In this document: positions 27,669 to 61,493 of the stretch, piece by piece
Layout of the letters: each line of letters begins with the position of its first letter
Position numbering within the stretch: position 1 is the first letter of the stretch
Source: a virus
Taxonomy: Duplodnaviria > Caudoviricetes
DNA length: 64,000 bases
Virus record (IMG/VR): IMGVR_UViG_3300011008_000016
Coordinates: 128,001 to 192,000 of that record
Direction: 5' to 3' (one strand)
Notes under the pieces: generated by a model
Told to the model about the DNA's origin: nothing
The model's database searches: none
What the model saw: only the letters and a program-made list of their open reading frames with translations
Program-made: the position numbers and the translations under genes

Positions 27669-27688
27669 ATTTGCAGTAACATAAAGAT

Positions 27689-27866
27689 AATTAGTAGGTT
27701 AATGGTAACTTACTGATTCCTTACCCGAGGTAACGGGGACTCTTACTCTTGAGCATGTCCTGTCTGGTTGAATCAGGACATCTTCCTTTTAAAAGATTTC
27801 ATCGATAAAATGACTCAGTTGCACGGATAGAAAGGTGGTTACCGACAGCCACCTTTCTCATTCCGT
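27689..27866 (+). ncRNA. candidate structured small RNA (late-type promoter)
   Basis: AACA-N6-TA at 27678-27689; hairpins 27692-27715, 27717-27739, 27755-27781; terminator-like stem 27829-27858; no ORF. Confidence 0.55.
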
Positions 27867-27889
27867 TTACATACAAAAAATAAATTCTG

Positions 27890-27921
27890 GGGTAGTGAAC
27901 CATTTATTAGGTTCACTACCC
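27890..27921. terminator. bidirectional intrinsic terminator
   Basis: GGGGTAGTGAAC/GTTCACTACCCC flanked by A-rich and T-rich runs. Confidence 0.75.
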
Positions 27922-27957
27922 CTTTTGTTTTGTATTAGAAAAACTGCACAACCCCGC

Positions 27958-28290
27958 TTATTTATAAACAATCTCGCTTCTGCCGAACGATATTAGTTGC
28001 TTTACAGTGACATATACATGTCCAGTTGTCTTTGTTAAATCGAAATCACCCTCAAGTCGAAGAGCAATATTCTGATGGCGACCACGAATCTTAGCCTTCA
28101 AATCAAACTTACGAAAAGCTGTGATATTCGTTGTAAAAGCTACATTGTCAGAATCCACATCGGATAAACGGAACTTCATAGAAACAAGATTCCCATATTC
28201 ATATACAGGAATAAATTCCATTTTCATATCGTCCACGATTGCCAGATTGTACTGTAACTCATTAACAGTAAGCATAGTTGTTGTCTTCAT
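27958..28290 (-). CDS. early hypothetical protein
   Basis: AAAGGAGG RBS; operon under boxed early promoter. Confidence 0.75.
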   Translation of the reverse strand: MKTTTMLTVNELQYNLAIVDDMKMEFIPVYEYGNLVSMKFRLSDVDSDNVAFTTNITAFRKFDLKAKIRGRHQNIALRLEGDFDLTKTTGHVYVTVKQLISFGRSEIVYK

Positions 28291-28314
28291 AGTGTAAATC
28301 CTCCTTTGTGATTA

Positions 28315-28500
28315 TTAGAAAATTTCCATTGATTGGTTTTTACGACCAAAAATGTTACCTTTAGTTACCATTCCATCTTCTGGATTCTGAATACCAATAT
28401 TACGACAAACTTTAAGAAGTCCTTCACAATTATTTTCAGGTTTCTCTGAAGAGTTAAGAAAGTTGCTAATTTCATTAATCATCTCAGTTCTCTGTAACAT
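28315..28500 (-). CDS. small early hypothetical protein (start corrected from 28542)
   Basis: GGAGGT RBS before ATG 28500. Confidence 0.65.
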   Translation of the reverse strand: MLQRTEMINEISNFLNSSEKPENNCEGLLKVCRNIGIQNPEDGMVTKGNIFGRKNQSMEIF

Positions 28501-28514
28501 TATAATACCTCCAT

Positions 28515-28853
28515 TTATGAAAGTGATATTGCAATCTGGCATAATGTCTGATAAACGTCCCAGTGTGCATCATACCAAAGCTCACTTAAAGTTTTAACCT
28601 CAAACTCATTTGCAATTCTTCCAGCTATTTGATTAGCTTTGGCGGAAAAATTCTTCAACATATCCAATTGATATTCTGACATGTTCCATATTAATGCATT
28701 TATTGCATTCACATCTTTGGAGGCAATTATTTCAGAATTCTTCTGGAGATATTCTTCAGCCTCTTTCTTTCCCATTTCAGCAGCCTCATCTTTCATAGTG
28801 TTAAAACTTTTCCCATTGCTAACATTGATTCCCATTTCATTAATTCTTAACAT
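28515..28853 (-). CDS. early hypothetical protein
   Basis: AAAGGGG RBS; first gene after promoter 28935-28970. Confidence 0.7.
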   Translation of the reverse strand: MLRINEMGINVSNGKSFNTMKDEAAEMGKKEAEEYLQKNSEIIASKDVNAINALIWNMSEYQLDMLKNFSAKANQIAGRIANEFEVKTLSELWYDAHWDVYQTLCQIAISLS

Positions 28854-28934
28854 AACTTTTATCCCCTTTCGTGTATAAACTGGAGCATAGTAAATTTGTT
28901 ATAGTAGCTCCATTAGTTTCCTTATATACAGAAT

Positions 28935-28970
28935 TAATATAGTACTAAAAAGCTTGCGAAACGGATTTTT
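28935..28970 (-). promoter_or_regulatory. boxed early promoter AAAATCC-N21-TATATTA
   Basis: Same fixed spacing in 5 copies (28935, 33301, 36587, 47274, 56152). Confidence 0.75.
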
Positions 28971-28979
28971 CACAAAACA

Positions 28980-29186
28980 GAGATAGGTGTACAGAATCTA
29001 TTAATTCCATACACCTATCTCATTTTCCATCCGCCGCTTTCATAGCGGCAATCCCGACCCAGCCGCGACACATATCGCATCGGCATATTCCATATTTTCC
29101 AAGGGGCATTTACACCCATCCATTTTCACCGAAGCCCGCCGCTGGATATACACCGGGTATACATATGAGCAGATATCTTCCGCTCT
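28980..29186 (-). ncRNA. candidate GC-rich structured small RNA (late-type promoter)
   Basis: AACA-N6-TA at 29186-29197; hairpins GAGCGGA/TCTGCTC, GCCGCT/AGCGGC, GCGA/TCGC; terminator AGATAGGTGTA/TACACCTATCT; no RBS-led ORF. Confidence 0.6.
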
Positions 29187-29270
29187 AAAAATATGTTATG
29201 TAAAATTTATTTATTTATTAATAAAAAAGAATTCAGTAGAGGATATCTTGTATTCCCTACTGAATTCTTT

Positions 29271-46434: not shown

Positions 46435-46627
46435 AATGATTTCCCTCCTTTAACTTTCATGTAACATAATGCATATGTTATTCTTTTGTCCTCCTTTCCT
46501 TGGTTTTTAATATATAAATAATATTTTATCAAGTCTATTACATATTTTTAGAGGGAAATTAATCCCTTTATATCGTAATTCTTGTTTTAAAATTACACTT
46601 GTATATAAAAGTTGGAGGTTAAAAAAG

Positions 46628-46879
46628 ATGTCTAATGGAGCAATGCTCGAAAGGGCAAGAAAACTTGTGTTTGATTGGTACCGTGAAAGAGGAAACAACG
46701 ATTTATCATTTGACAATGTTTACGTTGTCTGGTTCTGCAAAACACTTCAGAATTGGAAGGCTCTGGTATCAACGGATGAACCGGACCACCGGTACTTTGA
46801 GATTACTCATAACGGCGTGGCAAATGAGACCTACCTCGATTCCTATATAAAAGAGGAGAATCGGGTATTTAAAGTTTGA
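46628..46879 (+). CDS. DUF6275-family protein
   Basis: VYVVWFCKTLQNWKALVST...YFEIT.NG...E.YLD.Y. Confidence 0.85.
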   Translation: MSNGAMLERARKLVFDWYRERGNNDLSFDNVYVVWFCKTLQNWKALVSTDEPDHRYFEITHNGVANETYLDSYIKEENRVFKV

Positions 46880-47310
46880 AACTACATATACAAAAAAGTA
46901 ATCGGGGAGTCTTTATCACTCCACCGATTACTTCCCGAACTATATTATGTTATCGTTCAGCGATACGTCGGATGGAAATGATAGTCCATCGACGAATCAT
47001 TCTGAAAAGGCACATAATATGTTGGAGGTAACGCCCGATTAACCCTGGTGGTAGCAGGGTTAATGGAAGTCCCATACTGGAGGCGATTGATTACGCTCTT
47101 CAGTATGGGATTTTTCGTTCCCATAAAGCATTTAATGTCATTATAATCCTTAGCAGTCATAGTTCCGGTTCTCCTTTCTAAATACTCGATATAGCTTCGC
47201 ATCTCCTTTCTTTTGAATTTATTCATTTATAATACCTCCTCTCAAATTACTTTATCCGCTATATCTAAGTATTTAATATAATTACGAAATCTTTATGAAC
47301 CGGATTTTTT
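46879..47310 (-). repeat. early cassette copy B
   Basis: Terminator 46898-46931, hairpin 47070-47110, leader 47171-47212, promoter 47274-47310. Confidence 0.85.
46957..47226 (-). CDS. small PIL-x7-QYG family protein, copy B (alternative start 47160)
   Basis: NPILKSVINRLQYGTSINPATTRVNRALP; three SD motifs in the leader. Confidence 0.65.
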   Translation of the reverse strand: MNKFKRKEMRSYIEYLERRTGTMTAKDYNDIKCFMGTKNPILKSVINRLQYGTSINPATTRVNRALPPTYYVPFQNDSSMDYHFHPTYR

Positions 47311-47340
47311 TATCTTTTTATTAAACTACAACAAAATATT

Positions 47341-47535
47341 AATCTTGAGGGTTGCTACTCAAGATCCACGAGAAAGGAGGCGTGGTCAAACCTTTTTGTT
47401 TATTTCTACAGAGATTTATTTATCCCTTGAACCCCGTGTATAAATATTTGTAGATTTGGGCATCTTGTTGTTTTGACCATGTGTGGGAAAAGACAGAGAG
47501 TGAGGAATCGTGTCCCTTCACTCTCTGTCTCTTTT
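47341..47535 (+). ncRNA. candidate structured small RNA with AAAGGAGG in a hairpin loop
   Basis: AACA-N6-TA at 47330-47341; hairpins 47342-47365 and 47366-47385; long stem 47382-47390/47472-47480; terminator 47491-47530. Confidence 0.55.
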
Positions 47536-47536
47536 G

Positions 47537-55358: not shown

Positions 55359-55862
55359 ATGCTTATGGAAAATACGATTTTGATAGCCATTTTAATAGGA
55401 GTTGTGCTTTATCAAATCTATACTGACTTGTATAACCGGAGAAAGATGTTCGAAATCCAGATTGAAATGGCTAAAGCTCAACAAGCAATGACCAAAGAAC
55501 TTACTTGGAAAGAGATTAAAGAAATCATCAATGATATCATATCGTTCAATGTAAGTACATATATTCTTCACAATGGTCTTATGAAGATGAACAATGAGAA
55601 ATTGTCAGTCATGTGGACAATGATTATTGGTGAGTTATGTACAAAGGTGGATACTGCTATATCACCTGAAATAAAGAGACAGGCTTTCAAATCTATATCA
55701 GAAATGTATTTTAGTCGTTTCATAAAGAACTCTGTAGAGATAACAGTAGTTTATCAGTTGGAAAATAATCGGGATAATAATGTGAATAGACGACTGGATA
55801 TGATACAGAGAAATCAGAATACAGTTAATATCCCAGAACCTGAAAAGAATACAAAAAAATAA
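55359..55862 (+). CDS. single-TM hypothetical protein
   Basis: ILIAILIGVVLY TM; AAGGAG RBS. Confidence 0.7.
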   Translation: MLMENTILIAILIGVVLYQIYTDLYNRRKMFEIQIEMAKAQQAMTKELTWKEIKEIINDIISFNVSTYILHNGLMKMNNEKLSVMWTMIIGELCTKVDTAISPEIKRQAFKSISEMYFSRFIKNSVEITVVYQLENNRDNNVNRRLDMIQRNQNTVNIPEPEKNTKK

Positions 55863-55888
55863 CATCTTAATTTGCATTTCACAAAAAT

Positions 55889-56187
55889 GTAATCTTGGGA
55901 GTCTTTATCACTCCCAAGATTACTAAAACCGTGACAGAACGCGGTTTCTTTATTCAATTATATTACAGTTTAACCATAACTCGGTCTATAACTGTAATGT
56001 TCTACTCTCGGATTGGTCTCACCCAAATAGTCGTGAAAACTAAATGGTACAGGACCAATCACACGGGTATCACCCGGAGCATATGGAGTCCCATACTGAA
56101 TACGGTTGGCGAAACTTCTCAGTATGGGATTATCCATAATATCTAAGGATTTAATATATAAACAAAAAGTCTATGAACCGGATTTTT
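55889..56187 (-). repeat. early cassette copy C (no multi-SD leader)
   Basis: Covarying terminator 55889-55923, hairpin 56089-56129, promoter 56152-56187. Confidence 0.8.
55970..56137 (-). CDS. small PIL-x7-QYG family protein, copy C (55 aa, near-leaderless; not in ORF track)
   Basis: MDNPILRSFANRIQYGTPYAPGDTRVIGPVP...YSYRPSYG, translated manually. Confidence 0.5.
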   Translation of the reverse strand: MDNPILRSFANRIQYGTPYAPGDTRVIGPVPFSFHDYLGETNPRVEHYSYRPSYG

Positions 56188-56203
56188 GGAAATATACAAA
56201 AAA

Positions 56204-56244
56204 TACAATGGATAGTGAATCTTAAATGATTTCACTATCCATTG
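56204..56244 (-). terminator. intrinsic terminator ending the large RNA candidate
   Basis: ACAATGGATAGTGAA/TTCACTATCCATTGT stem then a U-rich run on the minus strand. Confidence 0.75.
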
Positions 56245-56249
56245 TTCCG

Positions 56250-56652
56250 TTTCCAGTGATTTCGGGAGTCTGACCCGCTTGCAAGTATTCTTGCTTTACC
56301 GGTTGGCGGTATACAATTTCTTTCCATGCTAACCAACCGTTTCTACGTTACGACAAATATCTGCAAGGAACATCCTCACCGATACTGGTCCCGGAACATC
56401 CGCAACCATTAGAGATTAACTTTAATCAATATGCCGATCTTGTCATTTCTTCTTTGGGAGCCCGTTCACCCACTGGCTTTTTCGTCTTGATTCATGACCA
56501 TCCTCAAAGACCTTCCTACTTTTTCTGAATCGGGTGTCTAATTTACCTCAGCTTATTGGTTACAATGTTTACAATCCGCATACGTTCGAATTGCCATCCA
56601 CCCATCTCTTTGGGTGCCCGCAGGAACTCCAACAGTATTCCGTGCACTGAAT
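56250..56652 (-). ncRNA. candidate ~400-nt large structured RNA
   Basis: ORF-free and GC-enriched; ends pair (TTCAGTG/CACTGGA); internal stems CACCCA/TGGGTG, TCTTTG/CAAAGA, CGGTTGG/CCAACCG, GCAAG/CTTGC, CGGG/CCCG; variant late promoter CACA-N6-TT at 56650-56661. Confidence 0.62.
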
Positions 56653-56737
56653 AAAGTTGTGTCGATCTTCAATAAGCATATAGACGGAGAGACCTCTCAT
56701 TTACCAGTCCGTCATTTTTGTCCATGGGTCGTCTTGA

Positions 56738-57607
56738 TTATCTGGTATTTTTCGATCGTGTTGTCGCTACTCCGAGCGATGCCATGTTTAACATGGGAAC
56801 TAAGATATGATTAAAGTTATAGCGTATGTCTAATATCTCTTTAATAGACATATCTGCTTCATCTACTTCAAACTCTTTTCCATCCATTTGCAATCTATAC
56901 GACGATACATCGTTAAAGTCTCGGTAAACCGATATTGGAAGTCTAAAGAACTTATAGTCATCGATCGTTTTGACCATAAATTTTGTAGCTCCTTCATAAT
57001 CAAACTTCACGAGATATCTTAGATATCGTTTGATAATAGAGATGATTCCATCCATATGATATTTCAGGAGTTGCTCATCTTTGATACCTTTGATTGCTAT
57101 ATCGTCCGTGTAAGAGTTGAAATAAACTTCATAGGTCTTATGTCTGGACTTGAGATTGGTAACTAATTCATCTTGCCCTAAGAGAATATAAATATCATAC
57201 GCATGTTTCTCTCGGAAATTAATATAGTTTCCAAATTCTGTATGAGGAGCATATCTCTTAATAAAGATAGCGTCCCTCTTTACAGAAAAAATATCATCCA
57301 CCTGTAGATCGTTTGCTGACCCAAACATGAGTCGATACTTAGTAAATAACATTTCTAACTTCTTACCAGTATTTCGAATGTCTGGATTCTTACTATACTT
57401 CAGCTTTCCTATTGTGATATCCCGTTCATGCTTATCTGGGATTGCTTTCAACTTTTCAATTTCATTTGTTGGTAACAAATTTTCCTCTCGTATGATTGAA
57501 AATCCTCCTTCTTTCATATCATACTCGATAATATCCCCGATGAACAGATCGATTGGATCTGTCCACCGGGGCTTTTCTAAAACGTTTTTTGCCTCTTCTG
57601 TTAGCAT
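56738..57607 (-). CDS. small divergent family-B-like DNA polymerase palm protein
   Basis: Motif-A-like IIEYDMKEGG and motif-C-like FSVKRDAIF; 289 aa, no exonuclease domain. Confidence 0.55.
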   Translation of the reverse strand: MLTEEAKNVLEKPRWTDPIDLFIGDIIEYDMKEGGFSIIREENLLPTNEIEKLKAIPDKHERDITIGKLKYSKNPDIRNTGKKLEMLFTKYRLMFGSANDLQVDDIFSVKRDAIFIKRYAPHTEFGNYINFREKHAYDIYILLGQDELVTNLKSRHKTYEVYFNSYTDDIAIKGIKDEQLLKYHMDGIISIIKRYLRYLVKFDYEGATKFMVKTIDDYKFFRLPISVYRDFNDVSSYRLQMDGKEFEVDEADMSIKEILDIRYNFNHILVPMLNMASLGVATTRSKNTR

Positions 57608-57614
57608 TTACTAC

Positions 57615-58493
57615 TTACTCGTATTCAACAATTCGCTGAGCAGTCAGCTTTAATTCATGGAGGATTTTATCCACCAACTGCTCCTTTGTTGAACCTGGAG
57701 TTATTCTTACAGTCTTTGCTCTGCAAAGGTCTTTGATATCATTCTCAGACCGTTTCATGAGCAAATCCCTAACTTTGTCTTCAAGGCTTTCCGTAAACCT
57801 ATTCCAGAACATCGTTGTGAAGTCATTCTCAGTTCCCGGTTCCGCCATCATTGTTGCAACGATACCTTTCTGCAACTCAAGCCGTTCGTGAATCTTATCG
57901 ATATTCCCAACATTTCTCAGAATGATGTTAAAGTCTTTTCCATCAAACTCTTCTGGAATATCAATATCAAGAGACTTCACAACTTTCTTATATGCTGCTT
58001 TATCATCAAACGTTGTAGACAATTTTTCCAAATCTGTAAAGAGATAAGACTGGAAATCAAATTGATCCAGAATAAACATCTGAAGATAATTCGGAATCTG
58101 CCCAGCATACTCATACGCAGCATTAACAATCAATACATCACAATGACTATTGATAGCCATATCTACGATTGCACATAAATCATTCATCGGCTCCGCACTC
58201 AGTAAATGACTATTATACAGCTCGATAAACATATCACGTTTTCCGGCATAACAATATTCCATTGCACTTGCCGGTGGACGTAATGAACTTACAAATTCAA
58301 TGTTGTCATACTTGCTTTCATAGTCAATGCCTGTAGATATACTCGCAATCGTAGATTTTTGTTTAATTGATCCGTTCAGTTCATGTGATGCTATCAGTAT
58401 AAAATAGTTCGCAAGGTCATTATACCTTGCGAACTTCATGATAAGGTCATCAAATGAAATGAACATAATCGAACCTGTGTGTTCATTTGCCAT
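57615..58493 (-). CDS. hypothetical protein with C-terminal SAP/HeH-like motif
   Basis: DIKDLCRAKTVRITPGSTKEQLVDKI. Confidence 0.65.
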   Translation of the reverse strand: MANEHTGSIMFISFDDLIMKFARYNDLANYFILIASHELNGSIKQKSTIASISTGIDYESKYDNIEFVSSLRPPASAMEYCYAGKRDMFIELYNSHLLSAEPMNDLCAIVDMAINSHCDVLIVNAAYEYAGQIPNYLQMFILDQFDFQSYLFTDLEKLSTTFDDKAAYKKVVKSLDIDIPEEFDGKDFNIILRNVGNIDKIHERLELQKGIVATMMAEPGTENDFTTMFWNRFTESLEDKVRDLLMKRSENDIKDLCRAKTVRITPGSTKEQLVDKILHELKLTAQRIVEYE

Positions 58494-58512: not shown

Positions 58513-60216
58513 TTAAAGAGTCACTTTGGTGCCATACTCCATTTCGACACCATTGACCTTTATTGTTTCCATTTCAGACTCTTTCTCTGATTCCTTCTCA
58601 GAAGTTTCAGAATATACCACAGCCTCACTTTCAGAATCTGGTTCTGATTCTACATCTGGTTCAGGTGTAGATTCTTCAACTGGTTCACCAGTTTCTTCTG
58701 ACTCTACCGATTCATCATTCGGAGCTGTAGCCTGAAAACATTTATCAGACAATGATTCCTGTAATTCCTCCGGGGTCGATTCTTTCTCCTCAGATTCCTC
58801 TTCCGGAGTATCAACCTGCGTAGCTACACTATAATCACTTGGAGCTTCCATAACAGGCTCTTCTTCAACCGGTTCGGGTTCAGACTCTGATTCAAGCGTA
58901 GATTGAGTCTGAACTGGGTTTGCAGAATTATCATCATCCTGAACAGTCACCGTGATCGGAACTCCTGCCGCTGCTTCCTGACGTTTCTTGAGATCTGCAA
59001 GATATTCATCTTCCTGACGTTTCCGAACATCTTCAATATCACGTTCCTTCTGATTCCGCTCATTTACCATCTTTGCGATGATATTATTGAGGCTTACCGA
59101 CGGATCGAAATCGTCTTCTTCCTCTTCATTATAATTATTGACCATCTGGGGACCATAATCACACCCGTTCGTTTCATCGAATGTCCTCATATCACCAACA
59201 GGACCGCCGAACATGTAACGAGACTGATAGTTCTCAGTATAAATCGGCTCTGGCTCTTCCTCAGACAGATTCTGATACAAAAGCTGTTTTGCTTCTTCAT
59301 CCTGAGGATTACGAAGCATCCTAATCATCAGATCAAGCTTATTGGTTTCCATAGTTTCTTCTCCTTCCTCAATATTCAGAGTCATCAGTTTTCCCTCCTC
59401 TTTCATCTTAATATAGCGATAATAATCGCCTGGATTATCAATGATAACTGCATTGTCACCAATCATTCTATCTTCGATAACCGCTATATCTTTCGAAATA
59501 ACTCCTTTTGGTAAACGAATTGATTCTCCTTTCCTCTCTTTTATCATGTCGATATCGACTTGCTTTCCTTGAATCCGCTTTCTATCATTATAGGTATATA
59601 CGGCTCTACAACCAGACCTATCTGTACACATCAACTTATCATAAGTCGAATCATACGTAAGTGGGCTACCGCACCGACTACACGTAAACAAATTCTCTGT
59701 AAAACGATGGCAATAAGCGTAATCCAAGATTACTGGTTTATTCTCTCGAATACCCCAGTTTGTCATGTTCTTCTTGATATAGCCAACATCACCAAGAAGA
59801 TAATCATTGCAAAGTCTATCGAGTACTTTCCGAATTTCTGTACGATAAAGTTCCCACTTATCATTCGTCATCAACTCAACACACTCTGCAATTAAAATAT
59901 ATCCGTTCGTTTCATAACTCTTGGTAACATACGGTTGCAATTCGGGACTTAGAGAATATTCAATCAAATTATCAAGATATCCTTGTTCATCCATTGCAAA
60001 TTTTACCGCATATCCATCGATTTGTAATGCTAACCGATTCGTTGCGCCACCAAGAAATTGAAACGGAACTTCATAAGTGTAAAGAAGATTACTAAGCGTA
60101 ACCATTTTCTCCGCATTGGATTCTATACGCTTAGTATCACAAATCGCCCCAATATACCGAAGGAGCTTTTCATCTTTTCCGAAGATCGTTTTGATCTTGC
60201 TTTTAACTGTAACCAT
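58513..60216 (-). CDS. protein kinase-like protein with Zn ribbon and long acidic tail
   Basis: LGGATNR, AVKFA, N..EY, GDV....NWG....VILDY; CSRC...C....C; E/S/P-rich C-terminal half. Confidence 0.7.
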   Translation of the reverse strand: MVTVKSKIKTIFGKDEKLLRYIGAICDTKRIESNAEKMVTLSNLLYTYEVPFQFLGGATNRLALQIDGYAVKFAMDEQGYLDNLIEYSLSPELQPYVTKSYETNGYILIAECVELMTNDKWELYRTEIRKVLDRLCNDYLLGDVGYIKKNMTNWGIRENKPVILDYAYCHRFTENLFTCSRCGSPLTYDSTYDKLMCTDRSGCRAVYTYNDRKRIQGKQVDIDMIKERKGESIRLPKGVISKDIAVIEDRMIGDNAVIIDNPGDYYRYIKMKEEGKLMTLNIEEGEETMETNKLDLMIRMLRNPQDEEAKQLLYQNLSEEEPEPIYTENYQSRYMFGGPVGDMRTFDETNGCDYGPQMVNNYNEEEEDDFDPSVSLNNIIAKMVNERNQKERDIEDVRKRQEDEYLADLKKRQEAAAGVPITVTVQDDDNSANPVQTQSTLESESEPEPVEEEPVMEAPSDYSVATQVDTPEEESEEKESTPEELQESLSDKCFQATAPNDESVESEETGEPVEESTPEPDVESEPDSESEAVVYSETSEKESEKESEMETIKVNGVEMEYGTKVTL

Positions 60217-60217
60217 G

Positions 60218-61459
60218 TCAATCCCTCCTCATTAAGTTAAAGATAGAATTGACTAAATCGTCACTCTCAGAATACATCGGATCTACACCACCAGTTGTTT
60301 CATCCATCATATAACTGGTATCAACTACGGGATAACTATTTCCACCTCCACGACGAATTCTTCTCGCTTTCCGTTTCCTCTGAGCTTTCTCTAATGATGA
60401 TCCAACATTCGCATAGTTAAGCAACCTGCTTTCGGACCATCCATTCTCTGCCAAGAACCGAATAAGCAACCGCTGCTCGTGTTCTTTTCGTGTCATAGGA
60501 CGACCTGTTTTCTCATCTTTTACCATCTCATTCATATTGATAGGTTTCTCTGGAATCTCTTCATGATTCACCATCTTTGTGAGAAGACCAGGTTCTGAAT
60601 AAGGTCGTTCTTCCTCAAACCTTTTCCTTATGTTCTCGGGAGAATTTTTAAATATTTCGTGAGATTGATCCATTTCTCCACCGGGCTTATACCAACTATG
60701 GAATACTTTATTAAGTTCATCAAGGCTTCCGATTGATGAATGAAATGACCCACCACTGTACTCTTCGTCCAATTTCTCCTTTACTTGCTTTGCAGTTCCA
60801 ATAGAGTCTTCTACTGTATACGATTTTTCAATTTCCACATCAGCCATCTCTTCCTTCATAATACGCAGCCATTCCTCTGCTGCTCCATCTGGCTGAACTT
60901 CTGTCTTCGTAGGAATTGTTCCCGATAAATACATATCATAATCTTCTGCTGCTCTGGATAATACAGGGACTGGTGGAATCCATTCCTTAATCATGCCCAT
61001 CTGGATTCGTTCTATAAATCTCTCTTCTCCATATTTCTCAACAAGATAATCGAAATACCGATTTCTTCTATGGATTGCTTCCAAATATTCTTCATAGTTA
61101 CGATAAGACCGCTTAATAGTTCGTGCTTCACGTAGTTCTTGAGAAATCTCTCCATTGTTATTGTAATAAACATCATAAAACTCAAGAGATGACTGCATAA
61201 AGACTTCATCATAGTCATGAGCACATCTGGTCCGTCGTAAAATTGTCATTTCATCTTCGTTAATCTTCCTAAGATTATCTAACGACAATTTAAACTTGGG
61301 ACCAGCATGTACTTCTTCCTGTTCCTTTTCCTCCGGTAACTCTTTCTCATCTTTGTCTTCAATGTGATGTTTCTTCTTGAAGTCTTCATAAGATGATTTG
61401 GTTCCAAAGAAAAGGTCGAGGTCGTTTATGTCGGTGACAAATGATTTTTCTTCATCCAT
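60218..61459 (-). CDS. hypothetical protein (start corrected from 61492)
   Basis: AGGAGGGAG RBS before ATG 61459; TATATTA at 61495-61501. Confidence 0.75.
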   Translation of the reverse strand: MDEEKSFVTDINDLDLFFGTKSSYEDFKKKHHIEDKDEKELPEEKEQEEVHAGPKFKLSLDNLRKINEDEMTILRRTRCAHDYDEVFMQSSLEFYDVYYNNNGEISQELREARTIKRSYRNYEEYLEAIHRRNRYFDYLVEKYGEERFIERIQMGMIKEWIPPVPVLSRAAEDYDMYLSGTIPTKTEVQPDGAAEEWLRIMKEEMADVEIEKSYTVEDSIGTAKQVKEKLDEEYSGGSFHSSIGSLDELNKVFHSWYKPGGEMDQSHEIFKNSPENIRKRFEEERPYSEPGLLTKMVNHEEIPEKPINMNEMVKDEKTGRPMTRKEHEQRLLIRFLAENGWSESRLLNYANVGSSLEKAQRKRKARRIRRGGGNSYPVVDTSYMMDETTGGVDPMYSESDDLVNSIFNLMRRD

Positions 61460-61493
61460 AAACGACTCCCTCCTTTCTATATTTGATATCACT

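Follow-up and report, generated by a model that had tools for sequence, protein, structure and literature searches.

The 64,000-nt stretch of phage DNA analyzed here (the window; bases 128001-192000 of IMG/VR record IMGVR_UViG_3300011008_000016, a 244,309-bp genome judged complete) encodes a previously undescribed, large and highly structured non-coding RNA of about 550 nt on its minus strand at 56198-56745. This RNA, called type A below, directly follows the gene of a 289-amino-acid (aa) protein, mini-PolB, which is predicted to consist of the palm, fingers and thumb of a family-B DNA polymerase. A preliminary description, made from the letters of the window alone, had proposed either that an RNA at this position primes or templates the polymerase, or that a new large ornate RNA lies there by coincidence. 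The second proposal has gained ground, since the RNA matches no Rfam family, shows strong covariation and abuts a polymerase-palm gene without an exonuclease. The co-orientation with the 289-aa gene and the position behind it were described correctly, while the length is about 550 nt instead of the estimated 400 nt.

Extent and conservation of the RNA

56198-56745, minus strand: whole structured RNA (type A), about 548 nt
56738-57607, minus strand: mini-PolB gene (P0001, 289 aa), phrog_21037, orthologue of AR9 g239

The limits of the RNA were inferred from the sequence, with the first conserved paired element as the 5′ end and the U-run of the terminator as the 3′ end. The mini-PolB gene is the last of a minus-strand run (57615-58493, 58513-60216, 60218-61492) and the convergent plus-strand gene run ends at 55862, leaving 875 nt gene-free (55863-56737). 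No open reading frame (ORF) was found in the RNA interval under translation table 11, TAG=Q, table 4 or TAA=Q. A hidden gene with a recoded stop in 55863-56737 was rejected, as nothing convincing appeared under the last three codes. The GC content is 0.42-0.46 across 56200-56800, against about 0.33 in the flanking genes. Other stretches of more than 1 kb without an ORF of at least 150 aa occur in the window, e.g., 27669-29270 and 46435-47536.

Homologues of mini-PolB at 57-89% identity are common in metagenome assemblies, and among these relatives the RNA directly follows the gene wherever the contig extends downstream. At least 15 other phage contigs have it right behind the orthologous gene, and nhmmer recovered the conserved block from 11 full-length relatives with E values of 1e-83 to 1e-125. 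We fetched 11 contigs that extend beyond the gene (L001, L002, L011/L012 and L013-L019). All 11 carry a homologous non-coding block of 450-650 nt after the stop codon that ends with a hairpin and a U-run. Two contigs ending early (L023 and L024) contain the matching 5′ part of the RNA, and IMG/VR added a further full copy (L040/L041). The more distant L009 (42-44% protein identity) has the 5′ and middle domains, with a terminator in place of the 3′ domain. Covariation was evaluated on 13 independent sequences, with L040/L041 as an addition for conservation.

Two covariance models were made, R1 for the 3′ domain and R2 for the middle domain; R2 scores sequence alone, as RNAalifold gave no consensus pair on its alignment. 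The RNA is single-copy in its own genome, where R1 matches once (E 4.5e-21). A blastn search of the phage GenBank collection with the locus gave no match, DNA pattern scans matched only the two known IMG/VR relatives, and a metagenome scan returned only three loci. For a loose pattern, GATGGTCAT-N15-42-GTGAACGG, there were 117 viral matches and at least 120 in genomes. We fetched 237 of these loci (with 80 of the 117 viral stretches among the matches listed), and an nhmmer search with the full RNA profile recovered none of them. These loci are therefore chance matches, and among them there is no evidence of the RNA in bacterial genomes.

Helices, pseudoknots and terminator

The predicted fold, supported by covariation, comprises at least 12 helices and three pseudoknots (PK1-PK3). 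The elements to which the text refers are as follows.

56742-56745, minus strand: T1 (CCAG), 5′ strand of PK1, pairs with loop segment L1
56727-56730, minus strand: T2 (GACC), 5′ strand of PK2, pairs with loop segment L2 (GGUC)
56683-56713, minus strand: hairpin H1 (GACGGA/UCCGUC), six-bp stem and conserved 19-nt loop
56704-56707 and 56691-56694, minus strand: H1 loop segments L1 (CUGG) and L2 (GGUC)
56551-56677, minus strand: long-range helix H2 (GCUUAUUG/CAAUAAGC), strands 56670-56677 and 56551-56558
56484-56511, minus strand: hairpin H5, conserved 13-nt loop GGAUGGUCAUGAA, stem sequence different in every sequence
56494-56498, minus strand: PK3 5′ strand (GUCAU), in the H5 loop
56442-56446, minus strand: PK3 3′ strand (AUGAC), inside the conserved AUGACAAGA
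56358-56408, minus strand: twin hairpins H8 (56386-56408) and H9 (56358-56385), with GGAUGUUCC-like tops
56263-56339, minus strand: 3′ domain (H10, GGUAAA junction, H11, H12)
56333-56339 with 56300-56306, minus strand: H10 (CGGUUGG with CCAACCG), enclosing the UAGCAUGGAAAG...UACC module
56281-56294, minus strand: H11, variable hairpin
56263-56277, minus strand: H12 (CGGG-UCAGACU-CCCG), near-invariant among relatives
56198-56245, minus strand: intrinsic terminator, a perfect 15-17-bp hairpin (56205-56245) followed by AUUUUUUGUAU

The start of the RNA coincides with the end of the mini-PolB gene. T1 precedes the UAA stop codon (56738-56740) by one nucleotide, and in relatives with an ORF that ends a few bases earlier it lies just past the stop. 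It pairs with L1, the first four bases of the H1 loop, and all four positions are paired in 13/13 sequences. Four different pair sets occur, i.e., CCAG/CUGG, CUGG/CCAG (L015), GAGU/ACUC (L009) and CUAG/CUAG (L023). T2 pairs with L2 in the 3′ part of the same loop. This helix has four base pairs in each of the 13 sequences, GACC/GGUC alternating with GACU/AGUC, and a variable fifth pair. In the H1 stem, four of the six pairs show changes on both sides. When H1 and PK2 are counted together, 93.1% of the cells are paired; changes on both sides affect 22 cells, as compared to 5.8 in column shuffles (0/500 reached this value). Slid controls, with the partner strand moved by 1-3 columns, gave only 21-55% paired. 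T1:L1 and H1 have the topology of a classical H-type pseudoknot, with T2:L2 adding a helix between its two loops. Judging by these covarying strands, the 5′ end of the RNA is a compact, knotted double pseudoknot.

In the central part, all eight pairs of H2 are retained in the six sequences with a correct anchor-regex match (6/6), in spite of variation to GCUUAAUG/CAUUAAGC, GCUUGUUG/CAACAAGC, GCUUAGUG/CACUAAGC and GCCCAGCG/CGUUGGGU. H2 encloses a variable sub-domain that includes a UGCA-capped hairpin with a purine-pyrimidine closing pair. In this hairpin (H3; 56640-56650, minus strand) and at the same column in relatives, the cap is always UGCA and the closing pair covaries, giving GUGCAC or AUGCAU. 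The self-complementary hexamer could be a loop-loop dimerization site or a plain tetraloop. The idea of a kissing-dimer site was set aside because a UGCA tetraloop with a covarying closing pair explains the palindrome equally well.

All 11 sequences examined for H5 fold to a hairpin that closes the same loop. The PK3 strands are about 50 nt apart and read GUCAU/AUGAC in most sequences; the pairing is compensated in L019 (AUCAU/AUGAU) and partly compensated in L015. The stems of H8 and H9, as seen by eye in the alignment, keep their pairing despite sequence changes in L013, L014, L015 and L016. In the 3′ domain, 94.6% of the cells are paired and 8 of 16 pairs changed on both sides, a number that was not reached in 500 shuffles; slid controls were 18-47% paired. 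An all-against-all column covariation script recovered H1, H2, PK2 and PK3 together with many spurious 4-bp stacks, and its other stacks were not used.

The terminator hairpin and U-run recur at the same relative position in relatives, with different stem sequences. The hairpin at 56205-56245 was read directly from the sequence; a consensus terminator scan did not flag it. H2 of L017 contains G-U pairs, as does PK2 of both L013 and L015. These would be A-C mismatches on the opposite strand, which together with the orientation of the terminator places the RNA on the minus strand. The T-arm-like CGGG-UCAGACU-CCCG hairpin noted in the preliminary description is H12 and is real, being nearly invariant among relatives. 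The paired ends reported there need revision. A simple terminal closing stem is absent and the 3′ end is not the closing strand of such a stem, since it consists of the terminator hairpin and U-run; the 5′ end is indeed paired, in pseudoknots with the loop of the first hairpin.

Domains of the RNA can be lost or duplicated. Apart from L009, which has no 3′ domain, L016 lacks both the sub-domain enclosed by H2 and the UAGCAUGGAAAG...UACC module, and this joint loss hints at a contact between the two. In L018 (3153-3344) and L019 (3269-3459), an insertion of about 90 nt in H11 duplicates the UAGCAUGGAAAGA...GUACC module of the 3′ domain.

Search for known RNA families

The cmscan comparison with tmRNA, RNase P, ROOL, GOLLD and OLE that had been suggested along with the preliminary description was carried out, and the RNA is not a member of a known Rfam family. 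With all 4227 families of Rfam 15, the whole window gave zero matches at the gathering score, and the 6S and riboswitch families likewise did not reach their thresholds. At E values up to 10, the region 55700-56900 only gave chance snoRNA and miRNA matches of 21 bits or less. Nine relatives had no Rfam match at E up to 1. With lax filters, stretches of about 0.5-1.2 kb gave no match to RNase P, intron, tmRNA, ROOL, GOLLD, OLE, HEARO or raiA models at E up to 10. ARAGORN found no tRNA or tmRNA in the window. A description of such an RNA was not found in the full-text literature (subscription journals were outside the search).

A tRNA-like or tmRNA-like element was rejected on the ARAGORN result and because the H12 loop has 6-7 nt, U(C/G/-)A(G/A)ACU, which is not the T-loop consensus. 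A group I or II intron was rejected as well. The upstream ORF ends at a position-conserved stop, the RNA is followed by a terminator and convergent genes without a co-oriented downstream exon in relatives, and no intron covariance model matched.

Some short motifs resemble RNase P RNA by eye: GAGGAUGGUCAUG can be compared with GAGGAAAGUCC, GGGUAAACUCCC with GGUAAACUCC, and AGAAACGG with ACAGAAC. The type-B2 RNA of a sister clade, described below, has a similar run, GGUGAAACUCCCUACUAGCAGAGCCCAA, and the likeness is stronger there. However, no RNase P model scored at E up to 10, also with a 470-nt query, and the order of the motifs is permuted. The P4-equivalent pairing is missing, as GUCAU, the CR-I-like loop, has its partner in AUGAC about 50 nt further on (PK3) and not in the AGAAACGG region. 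The likeness to RNase P was rejected on account of the missing score, the permuted order and the different loop partner.

The mini-PolB protein

The AlphaFold2 model of mini-PolB (P0001), obtained with 66 homologues, has a predicted local distance difference test (pLDDT) score of 94.2. The top 50 PDB matches in Foldseek are all family-B DNA polymerases, with E values down to 3e-7 for archaeal PolB and Pol alpha. VIA-align placed residues 11-284 onto residues 387-751 of KOD, 394-900 of RB69 and 402-773 of E. coli Pol II. For these three, Z scores were 11-12 over about 250 residues with a root mean square deviation of 4.3-4.5, and with Pol alpha/delta included the range was 10-12; the top Z was 12.2 over 248 residues (KOD, RB69). 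Herpesvirus UL8, which is an inactive PolB relative, gave a Z of about 9.9. According to the model, P0001 is a family-B polymerase palm, fingers and thumb fold. Nothing precedes the palm, as the N-terminal and 3′-5′ exonuclease domains are missing. The model and both structure comparisons thus bear out the polymerase palm without exonuclease that the preliminary description had proposed. No Pfam family matched at E up to 1, including DNA_pol_B and reverse transcriptase (RT), and the only match was phrog_21037, which has no assigned function.

Five residues are invariant in the 66 homologues: D30 (in EYDMKEGGFSII), G67, D112 (in SVKRDA), Y228 and N264. E28, N99, K134, Y137, K173, G174 and H184 are near-invariant, with K134 and Y137 present in more than 90% of the 66. 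From residue order and secondary structure, judged by eye, we infer that D30 belongs to motif A (DMKEGGFSII, cf. DxxSLYPSI), D112 to motif C and K134-x-x-Y137 to the KxY motif. Of the motifs in the preliminary description, the conserved motif-C aspartate would be D112, while the YTDD proposed there (166-169) is not conserved across the 66 homologues. Since the putative catalytic aspartates are invariant, mini-PolB is probably active as a polymerase. As compared to distant homologues, the type-A proteins have a basic insert of 13 aa (147-159, low pLDDT) and a basic tail of 11 aa (279-289), and these segments may hint at a link with the RNA.

The mini-PolB family has 573 clusters at 50% identity, with a median length of about 257 aa. 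Proteins of 230-295 aa are found in AR9/PBS1, Staphylococcus S6-like, Yersinia phiR1-37 and Listeria LPJP1 phages, and are annotated merely as hypothetical (AR9 g239 is L027:2932-3699). As far as could be found, mini-PolB itself is unreported. It is a candidate for an accessory polymerase or for the primase of these phages. A split replicative PolB is encoded elsewhere in the phage genome, additional to mini-PolB. Its PF00136 match is at G000:C1:38683-38994 (minus strand) in a 658-aa ORF and the exonuclease match (PF03104) is at G000:C1:58803-59267 (minus strand) in a 608-aa ORF.

Distribution of the RNA and its link to the gene

The mini-PolB gene is far more widespread than the RNA. The next gene starts 42-84 nt after mini-PolB in AR9 (g239), S6 and LPJP1, and less than 100 nt is present downstream at about 60 of 80 further IMG/VR mini-PolB loci. 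The cultured phages AR9, S6 and LPJP1 demonstrate that the mini-PolB gene does not need the RNA. Models R1 and R2 gave no significant match in the genomes of AR9, LPJP1 and S6 or in two further relatives from IMG/VR, of which one (250 kb) is complete and the other (93 kb) about 39% complete. A large GC-rich gap after the gene was observed in three groups only, i.e., the clade of the window, L036/L021/L022 (type B1) and L037/L020 (type B2). The co-occurrence expected from the preliminary description therefore holds throughout the type-A clade and fails across the wider family.

The type-B loci belong to a sister clade with about 40% protein identity. The B1 region is 555 nt (L021:2296-2850, L022:2296-2848, L036:2287-2841) and the B2 region 431 nt (L020:2290-2720, L037:2293-2770). 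Both are non-coding with a GC content of 0.42-0.43, each ends in a terminator, and neither has an Rfam match. Homology between types A and B was considered and rejected, as R1, R2 and nhmmer detected none. By eye they share only short words, the GG-UGAAACU-CC hairpin with its UGAAACU-like loop and CCGGUAAAA. B1 and B2 have the CCGGGGA..UCGA....CCCCGAAG hairpin in common. The type-B RNAs probably are further new RNA classes or fast-diverged relatives of type A.

A quick maximum-likelihood search with 85 mini-PolB proteins and midpoint rooting gave a tree in which all RNA-bearing loci form one clade (SH-aLRT 99), containing 14 type-A loci, the truncated L009, two B1 and two B2 loci. L010, a contig that ends at the gene, is inside this clade and all 59 RNA-less rows are outside. 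With the B1 and B2 RNAs at the same position, the whole RNA-bearing group is therefore one clade. Type A is inherited vertically, directly after the mini-PolB gene, within one clade of uncultivated AR9/PBS1-like jumbo phages. The pattern fits one acquisition of the RNA locus followed by fast divergence; repeated insertion at the convergent junction would fit too.

Genomic context

The phage itself can be classified from its sequence as an AR9/PBS1-like "group 1" jumbo phage. This placement follows from a 498-aa ORF with Rpb1 domain 2, which is a piece of a split multisubunit RNA polymerase, from a dCMP deaminase encoded among the neighbors of the RNA locus, the split family-B replicase, and the closest cultured carriers of mini-PolB, which are Bacillus AR9/PBS1, Staphylococcus S6/PALS_2, Yersinia phiR1-37 and Listeria LPJP1. 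AR9 and PBS1 are jumbo phages with uracil-containing DNA.

A 292-aa gene (57615-58493, minus strand) lies upstream of mini-PolB and is kept throughout the RNA-bearing clade (e.g., L001:2117-3004). In several relatives the two genes share 4 nt at the start of mini-PolB, an arrangement suggestive of translational coupling. Neither Pfam nor PHROG gave a match for the 292-aa gene; by eye, the C-terminal 40 residues of the protein are SAP/HeH-like. The SAP/HeH and kinase-like labels that two upstream genes had been given initially find no support in Pfam and reflect motif resemblance alone.

Between the RNA terminator and the convergent operon lies a stretch of about 300 nt (55889-56200, GC 0.39-0.40), which is missing from L001 and L002. 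On the minus strand it has a 55-aa ORF (55970-56137), which lacks an obvious ribosome-binding site, and after this ORF a strong terminator (55923-55889). Back to back with the latter, the convergent operon has its own terminator on the plus strand (55926-55947).

Possible roles of the RNA

The reading that we favor, with about an even chance of being right, is that type A represents a new class of large ornate phage RNA that is co-transcribed with the mini-PolB operon and acts in trans as a folded particle. Transcription of the operon would pass the mini-PolB stop codon, traverse the RNA and halt at the intrinsic terminator. The first element to fold would be the H-type pseudoknot of CCAG with the H1 loop, plus the second loop-tail helix of GACC with GGUC. 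It would form only once the last ribosome has left the stop codon, leaving the 5′ end knotted and compact. A defined tertiary core may be built by the conserved loops and joining strands (GGAUGGUCAUGAA, UGGUGAACGG, AUGACAAGA, AGAAACGG, CCGGUAAA and GCGGGU.AAACUCCCGA). By analogy with ROOL and GOLLD, the folded particle might act during infection alone, as an oligomer or with a phage protein. Co-transcription and a shared infection stage would account for the neighborhood of the RNA and mini-PolB.

Several observations weigh against this reading. Action in trans and the likeness to ROOL and GOLLD are drawn by analogy from size, ornateness and phage origin, and covariance models of these families detect no sequence or structural homology in type A. 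A separate promoter may be located inside the 3′ end of the mini-PolB gene. The strict adjacency in the clade, the 5′ pseudoknot at the stop codon and the extra basic segments of the protein fit a role in cis or with a protein partner equally well. The folding energy is a weak argument, being only modestly better than that of shuffles for a single sequence (z -2.6 for the minus strand; -4.2 for the plus strand), so the case for the RNA rests on the comparative data. Within those, the interior of the H2 sub-domain as well as H8 and H9 were judged by eye from alignments.

It is possible, if unlikely, that the RNA is a dedicated partner of mini-PolB in a polymerase-RNA particle, as scaffold, primer or template. 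The gene and the RNA are adjacent and co-oriented in every RNA-bearing locus, and a start of the RNA at the stop codon gives one copy per mRNA. The sister clade has large GC-rich RNAs (B1, B2) at the same position. The invariant, putatively catalytic aspartates of the protein and the basic segments at 147-159 and 279-289 would also suit such a particle. On the other hand, no RNA is present beside the gene at about 60 of 80 loci or in AR9, S6 and LPJP1, R1 and R2 find nothing significant in the five RNA-less records, and types A and B have no detectable homology. The protein has the fold of a DNA-dependent family-B enzyme, not of a reverse transcriptase. For the same reasons, i.e., a family far broader than the RNA and a DNA-templated fold, the initial proposal of a ribonucleoprotein (RNP) in which the RNA primes or templates the polymerase lost ground. 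In its most explicit form, which we consider clearly unlikely, this would be a new polymerase RNP. The stripped PolB would use the 550-nt RNA as its missing N-terminal or processivity scaffold, or as primer or template, for example in priming replication of a uracil-DNA genome or adding a terminal sequence, with the type-B RNAs as variants.

Retrons and defense-associated reverse transcriptases (DRTs) are known cases of a polymerase gene adjacent to an RNA, and the preliminary description had drawn this analogy partly from a YxDD-like motif. The motif turned out not to be conserved. A retron or DRT system was rejected on that ground and because the best structural matches are family-B DNA polymerases and no RT family of Pfam matched. 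An obligatory link to a non-coding RNA (ncRNA) was rejected as well, in view of the roughly 60 of 80 loci and three cultured phages with less than 100 nt downstream.

A role of the element as a cis-acting 3′ untranslated region (UTR) that controls the fate of the mini-PolB mRNA appears improbable. Such an element could protect the mRNA from 3′-to-5′ decay, link the termination of translation to folding, or stop convergent transcription. In favor of this role, no gap separates the RNA from the ORF, the first strand of the 5′ pseudoknot reaches or adjoins the stop codon in every sequence, and terminators on both strands mark the convergent junction. However, known stabilizers and terminators need far less than an RNA of about 550 nt that has three pseudoknots and many unpaired but invariant nucleotides, and orthologous operons in most relatives do without the RNA. 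The modular gain, loss and duplication of domains better fits a functional particle than a stability element.

We give even less credence, i.e., a small chance, to a link with replication, in which the RNA, placed between the mini-PolB operon and the convergent operon of an AAA+/MCM-like ATPase, would serve as an origin transcript or as the precursor of a primer. The neighbors include an AAA ATPase with a weak MCM P-loop match, mini-PolB and dCMP deaminase, and close to the element, at about 55800, the cumulative GC skew has its maximum. Against this role, the skew changes where the gene orientation switches, which accounts for the change; neither iterons nor an AT-rich unwinding element were seen; the RNA is missing from relatives whose gene neighborhood is the same; and the fold has no tie to priming. 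Finally, descent from a known ribozyme or mobile RNA (RNase P-like, group I/II intron, tmRNA or another family) is very improbable given the covariance-model, ARAGORN, motif-order and downstream-gene results described above.

To our knowledge, very few natural RNAs of more than 400 nt have complex folds that are proven by covariation, among them the rRNAs, RNase P, introns, tmRNA, OLE, ROOL, GOLLD, HEARO and raiA. New classes of large RNA have each opened new biochemistry, RNA-only cages being the most recent case. The type-A RNA is a further class, narrowly distributed in one clade, and comes from uncultivated relatives of AR9/PBS1, which have hardly been studied. An unusual trait is the double pseudoknot at the stop codon, by which the 5′ end is anchored in the first hairpin loop. 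The RNA also adjoins a second unexplored object, a family-B polymerase of 250-290 aa with only palm, fingers and thumb, which poses the question whether a minimal polymerase uses an RNA partner. If there is no partnership, the RNA still is a compact target for cryo-EM and biochemistry, and mini-PolB still a candidate primase or accessory polymerase.

Comparison with known systems

RNase P RNA is similar in size, and a few short motifs look alike by eye; e.g., the GGGU(A/G)AAACUCCC hairpin recalls GGUAAAC(U/C)CC of the S-domain. In contrast, the covariation-supported helices of type A do not map to the P1-P18 scheme. Retron msr-msd and DRT ncRNAs share with type A that a structured RNA is located beside, and co-oriented with, a small palm-domain polymerase. 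Type A differs in being 3-5 times larger, in lying downstream rather than upstream, in its occurrence in a lytic-type jumbo phage instead of a defense island, and in its absence from most members of the polymerase family. Terminal a1/a2 repeats or a long hairpin of the msd type were not seen in type A, though none were searched for.

The exonuclease-resistant RNAs of flaviviruses (xrRNA/sfRNA) also start right after a stop codon and form a compact multi-pseudoknot structure, with the outermost 5′ strand trapped in the first hairpin loop. There is no homology, type A stems from a bacterial system, and its RNA body is much larger and conserved in its own right. Resistance of type A to exonucleases would be pure conjecture by this analogy.

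For the protein, the closest parallel is phage PhiKZ, in which the family-B DNA polymerase is split over DNAP-N (638 aa, with motif A) and DNAP-C (731 aa, with motif C) (PMC13648687). The split replicase of the present phage resembles this arrangement of polymerase parts in separate genes. Unlike these parts, mini-PolB is encoded by a third, separate gene of 289 aa and is predicted to carry the aspartates of both motifs A and C. No RNA partner has been described for the PhiKZ polymerase.

The large RNAs ROOL and GOLLD, Rfam families for which cryo-EM structures are available (PMC12286853), resemble type A in general appearance. They differ in that type A matches neither covariance model, is not located beside tRNAs but always after the mini-PolB gene, and so far occurs in one clade of AR9-like jumbo phages only. 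What they have in common is a large size (roughly 0.5-0.8 kb), an ornate, multi-helix and pseudoknotted structure, a phage or prophage origin, an unassigned biochemical function and discovery through comparative genomics. Type A thereby shows the features by which ornate large RNAs are described, i.e., a length above 400 nt, covarying helices and pseudoknots, and a phage-borne, non-coding nature.

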